From the IMG/VR virus record IMGVR_UViG_2534682157_000018: a DNA stretch of 42,422 nucleotides. One strand, given 5' to 3'. This stretch comes from a virus. Lineage: Duplodnaviria; Heunggongvirae; Uroviricota; Caudoviricetes. Shown in pieces: positions 4,645 through 31,101 of this stretch. Numbering within the stretch: position 1 is the stretch's first letter; each line of letters opens with the position of its first letter. The notes below the pieces were generated by a model. The model had not been told where the DNA came from. It saw only the letters and a program-made list of their open reading frames with translations, and made no database searches. The position numbers and the translations under genes were made by a program.

Positions 4645-7600
4645 TTAACATTCCCCCATCACGTCGCATATTTAACAGATTGCCCTGCACCCGCTGATCA
4701 ACCATCCCCATAAGTGCTTTTATTGCCTGAGGGCCAATCTCTCCATTCTGGCCGTCATTTTGAATAGTGATTTGGTATACAGGGGCATAGGTAATATCTC
4801 CGCCTCCATTACCACTTTTACTATTAATAGCTCTGACACCAAGAGAACCATCGGAAGTTCGTGTTAATGGCATAATGGCTTCCGGTCCAGCCTCACCAAA
4901 AACACCAGCCCCTCTTGCAAAAGCAAAAAATTGCGGGGAATCATAAATACCGTTCGAATACGTGTTCAATGACGGAGACTCATAAACACCGCCCTTTGCA
5001 TTCGGAATAAATTTACTAATAGCACTCCCGATAGTTCCTAAAATCCCCCCAGAAGAACTGTTACTAATGCTGTCGAAAATCCCAGTAATTGAAGCCTTTA
5101 ATGCTATTCGACTAAGATCCGAAATCACGGAAGTAGCGAAAGAACGAAAATTTGCCTTGCCTGTCGTGACAAAATCACCCAGCGCATCGGTCATTCCATC
5201 AAACATCTGAGTCGTGGTTGATTTTATCTGCTCACTGATATCCTTAGTGTCATCCAGCCAGTTATTGAATCCCTGGGAGGCACCACTAACCCAGTCTCCT
5301 GCCTGAATATCGAGCTGCTCGTTTTTCTGTCTGACAATTTCTTTTTCTCGTTCCAGAGCATCATTCAGAGCCTGCATTTTCTCCTGAAAAACATGATTTG
5401 ACATCCCACGGGATTTATCTGCATAGTCACGTTCAAGTTGCAGACGCTGATTGTTATATTCACGTTCAATCCGCAGTAATTCCTGCTGGCGTTGCTGATT
5501 TTTATCGCCAACCCCATAACCAGCAATCTGAATATCATACCCCTGTTGACGATTATCAATCGAAGCCTGCAATGAATCACGCCATGCAGCTATTTCGGCG
5601 GATTCCTTGATTAGCCTGTTATTTTTTTCAATCGCAACATTTTTCTCCATCAACGCGGTTATTTCTTCCCGGTGTAAGAGAAGCGATTTCTGATCCTGGG
5701 TTAATTTCGATGACGGTCGTGACTCCAGGTCGGCAATCTGCTGACGCCACTTAACCAGTTCCTGTTCAGAGGAACTTAATTTAACGGTTAATTCAGTTTG
5801 TGAACTTAGTAACGCATTCTGTTGATTCAGATGATCAATCATTCGTTGGGCAGCATCATCCGAATAACCTTTCGCCTTTGGTTGCTTTGGATCTTTATAA
5901 CGCTCATTTATTTGAGCGATAAAATTATTATATTCTTCCTTTGAATACTGACTCTTTAGCTTTTCCAGTTTTGCAAGTTCACTAGCTCTCTGCTGCTCCC
6001 GGGTCTGATATTGTTTTGAAAAGGCATCTGCTCTCTGTCTGAGTTCAATTCCTTCCTGTTGTCGCTTGTTGTAATCGTTTATTGATGAATTTAGGACGTC
6101 CTGAGCAATTTTTTCTGCTTGAAGTACGCCCAATTGCTGCTTTAATCGTGCCAGCCTTTTATTTTGAGCTCCGCCATCTCCAATGCCACCTAACCCGAAA
6201 ACTCCGGGTCGGGTATTTTTTCTATTTCATCAATTTGACGGAGAACATCTGAGATTTTTTGATCAAGGGAGGCCTCACGGCCAATGTCCAGCATGGAATC
6301 CCATGCCCATTTTGCGGAGTCTGCGACAGCTTTCCATGCAGTCTCAAGATAACCAAGATTTTCTTTAATCTGGTTGGTGCGCTGGATCATTGAGGATGAG
6401 TATGCTTCTGTCGCAATGCGGGCGGCCTCCTGCTGGTTCCCTTCATCCTGTAGCGCCTTAATCTGGTTATAAGTCGCAATTGTCAGAAAATGGTACTGAT
6501 CATTAAGTTTTGATATGGCACTGACAGGATCCTTTGCAATTTCATTGAAGTCATTAACCAGTTGTTCGGTTGATATTCCTGTTACTTCGCTCGTTTTTAC
6601 TATCGCTGTCGTCACTTGCTCCAGCGAACTGCTCGCTACCTTTCCCGAACGCACAAGCTGGTTTAATACTGCCGCCGCAGCGCCAGTTGTCGAATCAGCC
6701 GCATTCCCGGCACGTTGAGCTATATCGGCCAATTGCCCGCTGGTTGTCCCCAACTGATTTCCGGTAAGAATAAGAGATTTATTAAATTCGTCCTGCTCCT
6801 GAGAGCCTTTATAGTAAGCCAGTCCTAAGACCCCAACGGCTGCTGCGGCCAGGGTAAAAGGATTAATTAATCCCAGCACATAAGAACCTACACCTTTGAT
6901 CGCCGGGCCAATCCCACCGAACATATCTTTTAGCTGGCCGCCCTGCTGCATTAACACCATAAATGGCGACTGACCAGTGGACAACCCAACAACAATATCC
7001 GTCATTTGTGCAGGCAACATGCGCATAGCAAAAGCCGTTTGTTTTGCCGACATTCCGGTTTTGCTTAATTGTGATTGAGTAACCTCAAGCTCACTCCGCA
7101 TAGCACGAAGTTTTCCAGAAAGCTCCTCATACATTTCAGGAGAAAGCATCCCCTTAGCTTTTGCTTCATTGAGCTGTTTCTGTTGTTCTACCAGACGATT
7201 AAAAGCAGTTCCGACAGGATCAAGTTGAGCAATCAGACGTTGCAAAGCAACAACCTGTTCATCATGCGCTTTTGCTGCTTCTCGCTCTGCCTGAGCCTCT
7301 CCGGTAAGCTCTCGCCGTGTTTCCTGTATTTTTCGGCTATAATTCTCAAACTGAGAACCATTTATTTTCCCGGATGCAAACGCAGCATTAAGTTCATCAT
7401 GCTGTTGTTCAAGATTTCTTAGCGCCGCAGCCAGAGGGTCGATCTTGTCCAGCATTCTTTGAAAGGCCTGAGCCTGCGCTTCCTGCTGGGCGGCAGCAAG
7501 TTTTCCGGCCTTCTCGGCTTCTCTCTGCGCTTGCGCAACCCCGCTCAATTCCTCTGTGGTTTCATTAAGTTTACGGACAAGAAATTCATATTCTTCTTTA

Positions 7601-8884: not shown

Positions 8885-9814
8885 TCACGGCAGCCGGGGA
8901 ATTTTTTTTCTGGTTATCGTAGGTGCTTCATCTGCTGCGGTAATGCTCAATTGAACCTGGATAATGTCGCTATTACCCCCATCAGGCCATTCACCTGACA
9001 CCTGAACCTTCGGGAAACTGAAAGTGTATGCCCCCTCTCCATTCGAAAGCGTGAAGCTGAACGGAACTGTTTCTCCAGTCAGTGTTTTACTCCAGATTTC
9101 CCACGCGGCTTTAGACCATGAAAGCGTCACCGTACCGGACGGTGTAAAAGTAGTCGGAATATTTGCTCCTGCATAAGGCGAGCCAGTCCCGATACAACGC
9201 TGTGTCTGGAGTTTGTTATCGAACTGAATATCAAAACTGTCGATACAAAAACCGTTACCTCCGGCAACACCATTCAGGCTTACTGCTGAAACCTCCTTAA
9301 ACGAATAACGTAGCTTTCCTGCACTATCCACAGGTTCGCCTTTGATAAAATTCGTATCATCGGCCTTTGATTCCCAGTCCAGTCCGGCAAAGGTTACGGT
9401 CGCTGTAATATCGCCGTCGTTAGGGATCTGCATTTTCCATGAGCCAACCTGCGCTCCTCTGACGACAGAGGCAATTCCGACATCGGACGCATAGGTCGCC
9501 AGAGAAAATGTTATTCGCTCATTCCCCATTGTCAGAGAATCGCCTGACCATTCCGCGCCGAAACAGGATGCAAGAAAATCATCATGTTGACCCCAGCGAA
9601 ATTTGGTACCAACATCACCGCCGACATCCACAGTGCCAGGCGTCGCCCCCTGAGCCATCCGGGAGCCACCAATCTCATTATTTTCGCCTTTATTCTGGGT
9701 GGGTTTTACTCCCCAGCTTGTGCGTTTTAATAAACTCCAGTCACCACTTGCTGGCGTAGTGCCTGCAACCGTCTCCCGGATAAATGCCGAGATAACCTTT
9801 GCACCTGAACTCAC
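8885..9814 (-). CDS. major tail (tube) protein
   Basis: 309-aa ORF directly upstream of the G/GT pair; assignment by synteny only, not lambda V-like by sequence. Confidence 0.55.
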   Translation of the reverse strand: MSSGAKVISAFIRETVAGTTPASGDWSLLKRTSWGVKPTQNKGENNEIGGSRMAQGATPGTVDVGGDVGTKFRWGQHDDFLASCFGAEWSGDSLTMGNERITFSLATYASDVGIASVVRGAQVGSWKMQIPNDGDITATVTFAGLDWESKADDTNFIKGEPVDSAGKLRYSFKEVSAVSLNGVAGGNGFCIDSFDIQFDNKLQTQRCIGTGSPYAGANIPTTFTPSGTVTLSWSKAAWEIWSKTLTGETVPFSFTLSNGEGAYTFSFPKVQVSGEWPDGGNSDIIQVQLSITAADEAPTITRKKIPRLP

Positions 9815-27574: not shown

Positions 27575-27787
27575 TTACTCCTCAGGTTCGTAAGCTGTGA
27601 AGACAGCGGCCTCCGTCTGCCCGGTTCGGATTCGTACCTCGCAGAGGTCTTTCCTCGTTACCAGTGCCGTCACAATGACGGTTAAACAGATGACGATCAG
27701 GGCGATTAACATCGCCTTTTGCTGCTTTATAGCCTGCTTCTCCTTGCCTTTCGGCACGTAAGAGGCTAACCTACATGTGCAAAGCAT
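27575..27787 (-). CDS. hokD: Hok-family type I toxin (HokD/RelF-like core), maximal ORF with N-terminal extension
   Basis: C-terminal 45 aa MLIALIVICLTVIVTALVTRKDLCEVRIRTGQTEAAVFTAYEPEE is near-identical to E. coli HokD/RelF from memory; the codon where I recall the HokD start Met is ATA here; an in-frame ATG at 27787 has a GAGG 8 nt upstream. Confidence 0.8.
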   Translation of the reverse strand: MLCTCRLASYVPKGKEKQAIKQQKAMLIALIVICLTVIVTALVTRKDLCEVRIRTGQTEAAVFTAYEPEE

Positions 27788-27941
27788 GAAATTGGCCTCA
27801 GATTAATGTTAAGCGTCTTGCCGGACGCGTAATGTTAACTGGGGCTTTTCTCTATCTGCCTTTGGTGTTCATGCCCGAGGCAGATAGCCTCAAGCACCCG
27901 CAGCAATTCTACTTAACTCCCGTCACCTCGCCAATATAAAA

Positions 27942-28031
27942 TCAATCAGAAAGGCGATCCATAAGAACAACAGCAAGACAATAAATTGCTATTACAGCAG
28001 CAATAGCCAGCGCACATTTGAGAACCAGCAC
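27942..28031 (-). CDS. candidate small hydrophobic peptide (29 aa)
   Basis: AGGAGG 5 nt upstream of GTG start; translation (M)LVLKCALAIAAVIAIYCLAVVLMDRLSD is one predicted TM helix plus an acidic tail; below ORF-track cutoff. Confidence 0.35.
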   Translation of the reverse strand: MLVLKCALAIAAVIAIYCLAVVLMDRLSD

Positions 28032-28356
28032 GACAACCTCCTGTATTGGACGCACACCAGTCCTGATAAATATGAGGCTGTCTCGTCAGTGATTCAATAC
28101 AACTATTGGGTATAGTTTATCTATTTTTCTTTGGCAATGGAACACAACAGCCAAACATAACCAACACTTCTTCAGATGTATTAAGTCAGGCCCCAACCAG
28201 CATTTTGAGTAAGCAGTTCACTCAAATATGACTATCTGATTTGAGCGACGTGCGAACATTTACGATAGCTTCACTATGATTGGTACATTCTGCAATCTCT
28301 TTGTCTCAGAAAGTCGAAAGTAGCTTAAGCTATATTATCAAGAGGATAATCATCAC

Positions 28357-28389
28357 ATTGAAGGTCGATACGTTACCTTCAATGTGACA
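28357..28389 (-). other. 11-bp perfect inverted repeat about 10 nt downstream of the NTPase stop
   Basis: CACATTGAAGG-N11-CCTTCAATGTG; no clean U-tract on the minus strand, so it may be a stability or regulatory hairpin rather than a terminator. Confidence 0.35.
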
Positions 28390-28398
28390 ATCTATTTA

Positions 28399-30655
28399 TT
28401 ATTGAATTTGCAGGTTTGTACGTAAGGAACCTGTAGATTCCTCATATAACTTAGATATATAATTAGACATATCATGGTTACTTCGTACTTTTTTATTGAA
28501 TTTTTTCAGGTACTTATCAACCGTAGTGCTAAGTAGCCCTGAGTCGTCTGTAACGTGAGTTATCCCTAAATTAATCAAAACACCTAATTTATTTTTTTCC
28601 ACTAAGCTATCAAATGCGGATTTATCCCCGAGCTCATTCAGTGTTGATGCTATGAAGAAACGTGCATAATCAATATGTTCACCAATTTCCTCATATTGTT
28701 CAATTTGAACTGACAAGTCTTCCAAGGCAGATTTGAAAAAATCATATGCGTAATTGTTACTTAAACACTTTGTGAAAATACAAAGAAGAGCTACTGGTGA
28801 AAACTCCTTCAGCGGGATGTCGGTATTTCCCTTGAGAATATCAACATATAATTTACCTGCATCTATATATGATAAAAAGACTCCCCTCGTTATTTTTTTA
28901 TACGGAGTTAGATATGAAGCCAAATAAAAAGAACCGTTATAAAATAACCTTAAAAATCTTGTTTTATCGTTACTAGGTTTAAGTTCATTAATTTTATCAA
29001 TAAGATATTCATTGTCTCTTAACAAACCAAAATAGAAGAAATAACTATTTGCCCAATAAATATCATAAATATTATCATTTATGTCTATTAGGCCACGCTT
29101 CCTAAGTCCTTCAGCGTAAAAATACTCCATGAATGATCTGTGTAGAAATGAGAACGTATTACTTCTAACATTAACTGTTGTTACTTCACTGCGATAAATT
29201 AGTCTTTTGAAAAGTTTGTCCTCATCAACATTCAAGTTTCTTTTGGCCAAATAATTTAAAAACATGTCCTGCACTTCTGAAATTGATATGCAGTTTAGAG
29301 AGTTATCCATCATAAATATCGCAATTTCTACTAATATATTACTTATTACATCATATTCTGTTTGCGATAATAATCCCTTAGATGTATCCCATCGTCCCAA
29401 TACTATCTCACTGTATTTTGAGTATAGTTCTGTCATTGTAGATGGTAATTCTTTAATCTCATCAGAGAGTATTCTTGCCAGAAGAATAGCGCTCACTGGA
29501 GTCCTGGGAATGAACTTAAATAGTGGTGTTTTTCTATACCATTTTTAAGTTTATTTGTTATTTTAATGTCATTGCAGATTTTATCTACAAAGTCGATTAT
29601 TTGACCTGTGCTAAGTGGTATTATCGAGTATCTTGCAAACATCTGATCGATAACTTCATAGTCCTGAAGAGAATCCATAATTCTTGAAGCAACTAGTAAT
29701 CGAATTTTATCATTCCTGGATACTTTCTCTACAATGTCCCTGAAATTGTTTTGCCTTTCCTCAAGTGATTCCTTTACTTCATCCACCGAATCAACAATTA
29801 ATAAAATATTCCCATCATGTTGTATTTTGTACTTACTTAACACACTTTGTATTATATTTTCAACATTAAGTTTTTTTCTAGAACATCCTTGTATTGACAA
29901 AATACTGGAAGGATGTAGTCTTTTTCGTAAGAATATTCTTCTTTTATTTTTCTAATTAACTGTTTCAGCAAAGTACTTTTCCCAGAGCCAACGGTTCCCT
30001 CTAAAAAAATAAATCTCTCGGCTCTCACAACACTATACAGTTTTAACGGCCTGTGTCTGCGTTTTTTATGATCTTCCTTGCTTACATATCTATCAATAAG
30101 GTTATTTATGCCAACACTACCAAAAAAAGAGCTTTCAGGTGTATCACTTATAGTTTGCAATGTATCTGTTAAGTATTGTTCATAATTAATGGATTCGAAA
30201 TCCCAAAACTCTGGGTAATATTTACTGATTAAAGAACATATTTTTTCACCCTCTATAAATTTTATATTTGTAGATTTGAATTTCAAGTAAATTTTTTCTT
30301 GAGCATTATTTGAGATCGATGAATTAGTAATAACCCAAATTTCATTCAAATGTATGTTCTTAGAGCCAGAAGAAATAAAGCGTGGATATAATTGACACTC
30401 TTCTATTTGTCGTTCAACCTCACTATTTGACTGAATTATCTTTCCAACTTTACAAATAACACCAATATATATTTCCTCGTCTAATGCCTCATCTCGTTTA
30501 ATTATGACAAAATCAGCACCTTTTTCTGATGGTCCTTGCTTATATTCAACATGTGTAACAGTCGGCAAACGTGGTAGAAGCGCTCTTAGCACTGGATGGA
30601 AATCATCAACCTCACGTTGCAATGATTCTATTTTTCTTAAGTATTCTGGTTTCAT
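28399..30655 (-). pseudogene. NACHT-type STAND NTPase with N-terminal Mrr-like (PD-(D/E)xK) domain, read in three frames (29852..30655, 29493..29900, 28399..29496)
   Basis: Walker A GTVGSGKST at the end of the first ORF; Walker B LLIVDSVDE and LLVASR motif in the second; N-terminal GADFVII...EIYIGVICK resembles an Mrr catalytic core; junctions at T7 (29871-29877) and T5 (29529-29533); visibly AT-rich. Confidence 0.65.
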
Positions 30656-30682
30656 TTGTTTACCTTAAACAGTATCCAAAAA

Positions 30683-30721
30683 AATCATTTTATATAACAA
30701 TCATATTTCATACAATGTCAA
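30683..30721 (-). promoter_or_regulatory. candidate sigma70 promoter for the NTPase gene
   Basis: Minus strand TTGACA, then 17-19 nt, then TGTTATATA (extended -10-like), about 30 nt upstream of an AAGG RBS and the start at 30655. Confidence 0.35.
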
Positions 30722-30756
30722 CTATTAGACTCTTTTTCAACATTATAAACCTATTA

Positions 30757-31101
30757 TCAAAGACTAAGGCGACGGATTTCTCCGTCAGGTAATGACCAGA
30801 TAAGGTCAGGATCAACCACAACCGGTTTCTTCACCTTTGCCCTTGATAGTTTTTTGCGGGCGTTTTGCCAGTCTTTACGAACCTGTTCTGAGGGAAATAA
30901 CCCGTAACCAGAGTTGTATACATCACCGCTCGCAACCAATTCTCTGGCAAGAAGGTTCATCAGATATCTTGTCGCACCTGTCTTAGCTTCCAGTTGTCGT
31001 AACGTCTCGCGCCCACTCTGGCGCACGAGTTCAACAACCTGCCCTTTAATTTTTTCCCGCCCTTCTTGTGTAAATACTTTTGCCATAAGCGCCTCCGGCA
31101 A
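30757..31101 (-). CDS. hypothetical protein (114 aa), possibly DNA-binding
   Basis: ORF immediately after the 270-aa gene; basic C-terminal tail. Confidence 0.4.
   Translation of the reverse strand: MPEALMAKVFTQEGREKIKGQVVELVRQSGRETLRQLEAKTGATRYLMNLLARELVASGDVYNSGYGLFPSEQVRKDWQNARKKLSRAKVKKPVVVDPDLIWSLPDGEIRRLSL

Follow-up and report, generated by a model that had tools for sequence, protein, structure and literature searches.

A probable allele of the anti-phage gene bNACHT25 carried as AT-rich cargo in a Rac-type prophage of Escherichia coli

Gene locus and reading frames

The DNA analysed here, referred to as the window, was the IMG/VR virus record IMGVR_UViG_2534682157_000018 (Caudoviricetes) at its full length of 42,422 nucleotides. 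It was found to be a Rac-type prophage that extends from tail gene J to intR and lies next to ttcA in reference genomes. The minus strand of the window contains, at positions 28399-30655, a gene of the type of bNACHT25, an experimentally studied anti-phage gene of E. coli. A prediction made earlier from the letters of the DNA alone (the original prediction) had described an AT-rich island carrying a candidate antiphage defence gene of roughly 770 codons. The island was confirmed by the G+C content, which was 0.316 for positions 28357-30721 and 0.319 for the coding sequence (CDS), compared with 0.474 in the remainder of the window. The single gene was confirmed as well, but its repaired protein had a length of 752 amino acids.

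As sequenced, the gene was 2257 nt long, compared with 2259 nt in intact alleles, and it was divided among three open reading frames (ORFs) that overlap in series on the minus strand. ORF 1 (29852-30655, 267 amino acids) encodes the nuclease domain and the beginning of the NACHT module with Walker A, and stops six codons past a run of seven coding-strand A residues (A7). ORF 2 (29493-29900, 135 amino acids) continues in the second frame from Walker B through the end of the NTPase core. ORF 3 (28399-29496, 365 amino acids) covers the helical and winged-helix part of the NACHT module with residues H506 and S508, followed by the putative C-terminal sensor region.

When the gene was aligned to the intact allele of CFSAN061771, the differences were two substitutions and two single-T deletions, and nothing else. 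The first frameshift (29871-29877) is a T7 run, read as A7 on the coding strand, in place of the T8 of intact alleles; it affects the E-K-K codons of residues 260-262, within the NACHT core. The second frameshift (29529-29533) is a T5 run where every other allele examined had T6. The split into three frames at exactly these two runs, as had been predicted, was thus verified by alignment to intact alleles, and restoring one T in each run produced the 752-residue protein. Two coding-strand C-to-T changes, at 28878 and 30152, were private to the window when it was compared with all other alleles of the 99.8%-identical type. They result in L594F in the NCH1 domain and a synonymous change at T168, respectively, and could be either real SNPs or errors.

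Identity of the encoded protein

The repaired protein was identical to WP_001702659.1 at 742 of 752 residues (98.7%). The latter protein is annotated at the matching position in strain LC-1302-2020 (annotation seen in CP091756), and its accession is that of bNACHT25 (PMC12169576), which originates from E. coli ECOR11 (Kibby et al. 2022 preprint, 10.1101/2022.07.19.500537). Therefore, the locus represents an allele of a named and experimentally studied anti-phage gene. It was concluded that the locus is very probably an allele of bNACHT25, a single-gene anti-phage system that belongs to bacterial NACHT clade 6, and that this E. coli prophage of the Rac type holds it as AT-rich cargo between sok/hokD and DUF977. 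The proposal of a candidate antiphage defence gene agreed well with this identity, since the anti-phage activity of bNACHT25 has been published.

The window copy and bNACHT25 (clade 6; Kibby et al. 2022/2023; Conte et al. 2025) share the length of 752 amino acids, the domain order of restriction endonuclease (REase), NACHT and NCH1, and the Rac-type prophage slot as found in CP091756. The window copy differs by ten substitutions, of which only L594F is private, and by the two -1 frameshifts as sequenced. An even closer relative was WP_033801850.1, the commonest E. coli allele, which was present on 567 contigs. It has the same flanks (e.g. in CFSAN061771), shows 99.8% nucleotide identity and differs from the repaired protein by L594F only; unlike the window copy, it is intact. 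bNACHT32 (WP_057688292), which is 81% identical to bNACHT25 (PMC12169576), has the same clade, domain order and D48- and DnaJ-dependent defence, but is diverged by about 20%.

The segment was detected by megablast in 18 of 5,426 complete E. coli genomes at 97.6-99.8% identity, and in most of these 18 it was annotated as one 752-residue 'NACHT domain-containing protein'. A scan of GTDB species-representative genomes resulted in 77 distinct loci with relatives, most of them full-length matches. These were distributed over many bacterial phyla and one metagenome-assembled genome of a Methanosarcinales archaeon (L046), with the full-length relatives showing 30-40% identity. No copy was found in 50,697 phage genomes by either megablast or tblastn, no solved relative was found among PDB chains by sequence search, and the NCBIfam search returned generic P-loop noise only.

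Domain composition and predicted structure

The profile searches that had been suggested for the frame-repaired protein placed both the NACHT and the NCH1 domains above their gathering thresholds. The Pfam NACHT profile (PF05729) matched residues 214-331 (29664-30016, minus strand), a core that spans the first frameshift, with 36.7 bits against a threshold of 26.7, and NPHP3_N scored 37.3 bits. The NCH1 profile (PF22728) matched residues 576-741 (28435-28932, minus strand) with 132.1 bits against a threshold of 27 (E 2e-38). The Mrr_cat profile (PF04471) matched residues 23-143 with 17.0 bits (E 0.0064), a score below the gathering threshold of 21. The same profile is listed in the precomputed Pfam matches of two distant homologs, and the predicted fold of the N-terminal domain agreed with Mrr-like nucleases. 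This domain (30191-30655, minus strand; about residues 1-155) was assigned as a PD-(D/E)xK nuclease of the Mrr/FokI-like kind, as had been proposed, with D48 and K69 as conserved residues.

All of the motifs quoted in the original prediction were present in the repaired protein. The nuclease domain contains GADFVII, whose D is D48, and EIYIGVICK, whose K is K69. The NTPase contains Walker A GTVGSGKST (residues 220-228, positions 29972-29998, minus strand), Walker B LLIVDSVDE (residues 285-293, positions 29778-29804, minus strand) and LLVASR (residues 320-325). In homologs down to 32% identity the invariant residues included E44, D48, K69, Q83 and E105 in the nuclease domain, followed by G223, G225 and K226 of Walker A (the latter three invariant in 33 homologs), D289, D292, E293, R325 and H506. 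The Walker B extension D[GAS]hDE, by which NACHT is distinguished from other STAND NTPases (Kibby et al., 10.1101/2022.07.19.500537), was present as D289-S-V-D292-E293. Residues D48, K226, H506 and S508 occur in the repaired protein at the bNACHT25 numbering. Judged by sequence, the locus has the defining features of bNACHT clade 6, including the N-terminal PD-(D/E)xK (Mrr-like REase) effector with catalytic D48, with the exception of a full-length uninterrupted frame, which the gene lacks as sequenced.

The full-length predicted model had a predicted local distance difference test (pLDDT) value of 82. Its C-terminal NCH1 region was all-helical with pLDDT values mostly of 85-93, so the earlier description of the C-terminal part as low-complexity was not upheld. 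The comparison of the model by Foldseek gave mammalian nucleotide-binding leucine-rich repeat (NLR) proteins as the top matches, namely NOD2, NLRC4, NLRP3 and NAIP5 (E 1e-9 to 1e-7). Together with the Pfam NACHT score and the D[GAS]hDE signature, these matches bear out the assignment as a NACHT-type NTPase. The fold of the NACHT module is shared with these NLRs, and H506 and S508 are the equivalents of NLRC4 H443 and S445, positions at which hyperactive alleles of bNACHT25 are known. Unlike the mammalian proteins, the gene encodes neither leucine-rich repeats nor a CARD or PYD, and the effector is a nuclease on the same chain.

The protein could also be a different member of the STAND group, either of the Avs (AVAST) type, which had been offered as an alternative, or a non-defence NTPase that merely resembles NACHT. 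The PADLOC search (2023 library) gave no Avs, other STAND-specific or bNACHT-specific match and recovered only weak P-loop matches (HerA, mad8). Avs4 (AVAST type 4; PDB 8dgf) belongs to another STAND clade rather than to NACHT, and its TPR-like sensor binds the phage portal directly, whereas bNACHT25 senses indirectly via DnaJ. With Pfam NACHT and NCH1 above curated thresholds, an invariant D[GAS]hDE signature and 98.7% identity to the experimentally defined bNACHT25, this alternative is effectively refuted.

Origin of the frameshifts

Pyrosequencing miscounts homopolymers. In a whole-window alignment with the nearest complete genomes, all 12 indels were one-base losses in A/T runs of the window (positions 6215, 8901, 13487, 20889, 21164, 25066, 28123, 29528, 29870, 32986, 33722 and 35981). 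Contraction became more frequent with increasing run length, from none of the 145 runs of five bases through 5/64 for six, 3/17 for seven and 2/7 for eight bases to the only nine-base run, and G/C runs were unaffected. Nine of the 12 indels were located in genes: besides the bNACHT25-type gene, trkG was hit twice, and ydaU, ydaT, a DUF6651 gene, the tape-measure gene and the tail-tube gene were hit once each. By exact look-ups the truncated products of the window were matched to the STEC_DG131-3 proteins EGW92325, EGW92344, EGW92355 and EGW92361, the product of ORF 1 being EGW92355.1. The trkG and ydaT fragments occur only in STEC_DG131-3, a genome that was sequenced by 454 Titanium FLX only and assembled by Celera (PMC3491183). 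The window corresponds to this draft of STEC DG131.

The T5 frameshift was observed in none of six complete-genome alleles and in none of eight independent assemblies with the A7 run. Since every indel was the loss of a single base from an A/T run, the T5 frameshift is very probably an artefact, and a 454 homopolymer undercall can be assigned to this run with high confidence, by a rough estimate.

Two other explanations were considered and set aside. A mismatch-repair mutator is a less likely source of the 12 indels than 454 error, because each of them is a deletion in an A/T run, G/C runs were spared and the platform is documented. Rescue of the product by programmed frameshifting or transcriptional slippage was rejected, as intact alleles are in frame, the run is only seven bases long and the product would in any case remain blocked at the second frameshift.

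The gene calls in the window record are unreliable at runs of six or more bases. The split frame in this record should not be read as biology before re-sequencing, given a 454-only assembly with a systematic loss of bases in A/T runs.

Natural null alleles of the gene

Several observations weigh against the reading of an intact and functional bNACHT25 allele in the window. The tape-measure fragment was also found on three contigs, so not every homopolymer difference is an error. Similarly, the 309-residue form of the tail-tube gene (8885-9814, minus strand), which has T8 rather than T9 at 8901, was present on at least 1000 contigs, which marks it as a common allele in nature; in the reference MS1679 the product is the 320-residue form. 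The window allele carries the private L594F in NCH1, and its presumed anti-phage function rests on likeness to bNACHT25. A consensus promoter scan called nothing upstream of the ATG. Finally, the A7 form is real elsewhere and occurs on the window's own background too.

The exact 267-residue product was found on 38 contigs (84 index blocks), mostly from independent drafts, and in the complete genome LD67-1. All eight loci that were read with this product had A7. On the bNACHT25 background, which is 50 substitutions apart, A7 was found in 19KM1766N, and a 500-residue fragment was present on 124 contigs compared with 117 contigs carrying the intact form. A7 was also found on a 10.6%-divergent allele (240/2259 nt) at L024:2967-5307 (Logan SRR22942731). 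The change from A8 to A7 (carriers L006, L008, L015-L022 and L024) was the sole indel on three backgrounds, and by sequence comparison the null allele arose on at least three allelic backgrounds. Among the 18 complete genomes with the gene, six had it disrupted, by A7 in two cases and by a +T, a +A, an IS1 truncation and an IS3 truncation in one case each.

Two side observations were made on loci with the gene. The 10.6%-divergent allele adjoins a Dcm-like methylase and an EcoRII-like endonuclease, a defence-island context unlike the Rac prophage. In FLI21 (L009) the insertion sequence IS1 removes the N-terminal half of the gene, and in GPEC1446 (L023) IS3 removes the promoter and the first 29 codons.

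The strain might therefore carry a genuine pseudogene, in which A7 is a true null allele, the second frameshift is later neutral decay or a sequencing error, and the defence has been lost. The natural occurrence of A7 described above and the disrupted gene in one third of the complete genomes speak for it. On the window's own background, however, intact and A7 forms stood at 567 versus 38 contigs (about 15:1), about one sixth of the other 8-base A/T runs of this 454-only assembly were contracted, and the second frameshift was unique to the window. By a rough estimate from the two former figures, an artefact is about twice as likely as a real null allele. The pseudogene was thus regarded as the less likely, though by no means negligible, explanation, and the T7 run was considered to be probably a 454 homopolymer undercall as well. 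By a rough estimate, the gene is somewhat more likely intact in the actual strain than not; otherwise the strain has the circulating A7 null allele.

It was also considered whether the A8 run in codons 260-262 acts as a contingency locus, i.e. a reversible slippage switch within lineages for a costly, self-toxic nuclease with A7 as its OFF phase. If true, this would represent phase variation of a bacterial NLR-like immune gene. It is favoured by A8 to A7 being the only indel on three backgrounds, two of which are 50 substitutions apart and the third of which is diverged at 240 of 2259 nt in another genomic context, and by the density of homopolymers, as the 2.26 kb of the gene contain 12 A/T runs of six or more bases compared with 1.9 per kb elsewhere in the prophage. 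However, a run of eight bases is short by the standard of classical phase variation, and no reversion was seen. The A8 run is absent from the 82%-identical homolog on an Enterobacter plasmid, which has GAT AAA AAT at the frameshift site, and homologs at greater distance do not conserve this site. The other disrupted alleles use different runs or insertion sequence elements, which fits plain mutational loss. A contingency locus was accordingly judged to be very improbable, and the recurrent A7 is explained more simply if an AT-rich gene dense in homopolymers is lost by ordinary mutation. The flanks, at 99.9% identity, are too uniform to trace the origins of the A8 and A7 alleles.

No literature on homopolymer variation of bNACHT genes was found, and the recurrent A8 to A7 null allele is the one mildly new point. 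bNACHT25 is among the better-studied bacterial relatives of NLRs, and another copy adds little. The A7 null allele is common and recurrent in public genomes, and presence/absence counts overestimate the number of functional bNACHT25 copies.

Proposed mode of action

bNACHT25 protects E. coli from DNA phages and from Emesvirus RNA phages, and the D48A substitution in the nuclease abolishes both its defence and its toxicity (PMC12169576; 10.1101/2022.07.19.500537). Mutations at the equivalents of NLRC4 H443 and S445 (S508P) result in constitutive toxicity, and D48A rescues the histidine-mutant allele (10.1101/2022.07.19.500537). The MS2 coat protein alone activates bNACHT25 without binding to it (PMC12169576; 10.1101/2022.07.19.500537). 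Both activation and protection from T2 and T4 depend on host DnaJ and on the interaction of DnaJ with DnaK, and a guard-like model was proposed by the authors (PMC12169576).

By likeness to the published mechanism of bNACHT25, the NACHT module of the window protein would keep it inactive before infection. Infection by T2, T4 or an MS2-type RNA phage would then activate the protein indirectly, via the DnaJ-DnaK interaction. Indirect activation that requires DnaJ fits a guard-type model rather than direct binding of a phage protein. We propose that NCH1 may serve as the sensor and that NTP-dependent oligomerisation might bring the nuclease domains together, as in NLRC4 and in Avs and other STAND proteins. 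The PD-(D/E)xK nuclease would subsequently degrade DNA, as published for bNACHT25, and both cell growth and phage production would stop. The anti-phage activity of the window allele is likewise expected, by analogy with bNACHT25, to need D48 and DnaJ.

Signals flanking the gene

The upstream region (30656-30769, minus strand) travels with the gene and contains TTGACA at 30721-30716, TATAAT at 30747-30742 and AAGG 8 nt before the ATG. A sigma70-like promoter belonging to the gene itself had been predicted here. The -35-like part of this proposal stood, as the TTGACA is perfect; the complete promoter received no support, because no good -10 follows at 16-18 nt, the perfect TATAAT has no -35 and nothing was called by the scan. 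Published clones, however, were functional with the native upstream region (10.1101/2022.07.19.500537).

An inverted repeat after the stop codon had been described as perfect over 11 bp. The repeat was indeed present, 11 nt past the stop codon at 28353-28387 on the minus strand, but its perfect arms (28353-28365 and 28375-28387) were 13 bp long. It extends to an 18-bp RNA stem with a folding energy of -23.2 kcal/mol (z -4.6) and without a U-tract, and is a possible transcript-end hairpin; the terminator scan made no call there.

Cargo slot of the prophage

To delimit the variable cargo segment, its flanks were compared by blastn with five Rac-type loci that carry other cargo. Its maximal extent was 28007-30769, with a G+C content of 0.326. 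The right border was fixed at 30769/30770, and the left border varied within 27753-28006 with the strain compared. On the left, the slot is flanked by a conserved region with the sok antitoxin RNA of hokD/sok (27725-27899, minus strand; Rfam RF01794, 115.8 bits). On the right, the 3' end of the DUF977 gene (30757-31101, minus strand) is replaced by the cargo, and the gene is annotated as 'missing C-terminus' in reference genomes; DUF977 is full-length (138-143 amino acids) in loci with other cargo.

In other strains the slot holds PARIS (AriA/AriB), a CBASS cyclase with a 2TM effector, an OLD-like ATPase-Toprim nuclease with a Dcm methylase, or QueH. The proposed status of the gene as cargo or a moron was therefore supported, as it occupies a variable slot that carries other defence systems elsewhere. 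Rac-type prophages exchange defence cargo at the sok/hokD-DUF977 junction, which could be mined for new systems.

Two minor observations were made on this slot. Further cargo was found as a two-gene cassette encoding proteins of 310 and 178 amino acids, both annotated as 'hypothetical' and without a PADLOC match (L014:1154-2637, E. coli ET201 and at least nine other strains), which is a candidate undescribed defence system. At the fixed right border, inside the DUF977 CDS, a hairpin that resembles a terminator (7 bp, 4 GC) and has a T-rich tail was located at 30770-30787 on the minus strand; it could be due to chance or be related to the recombination junction.

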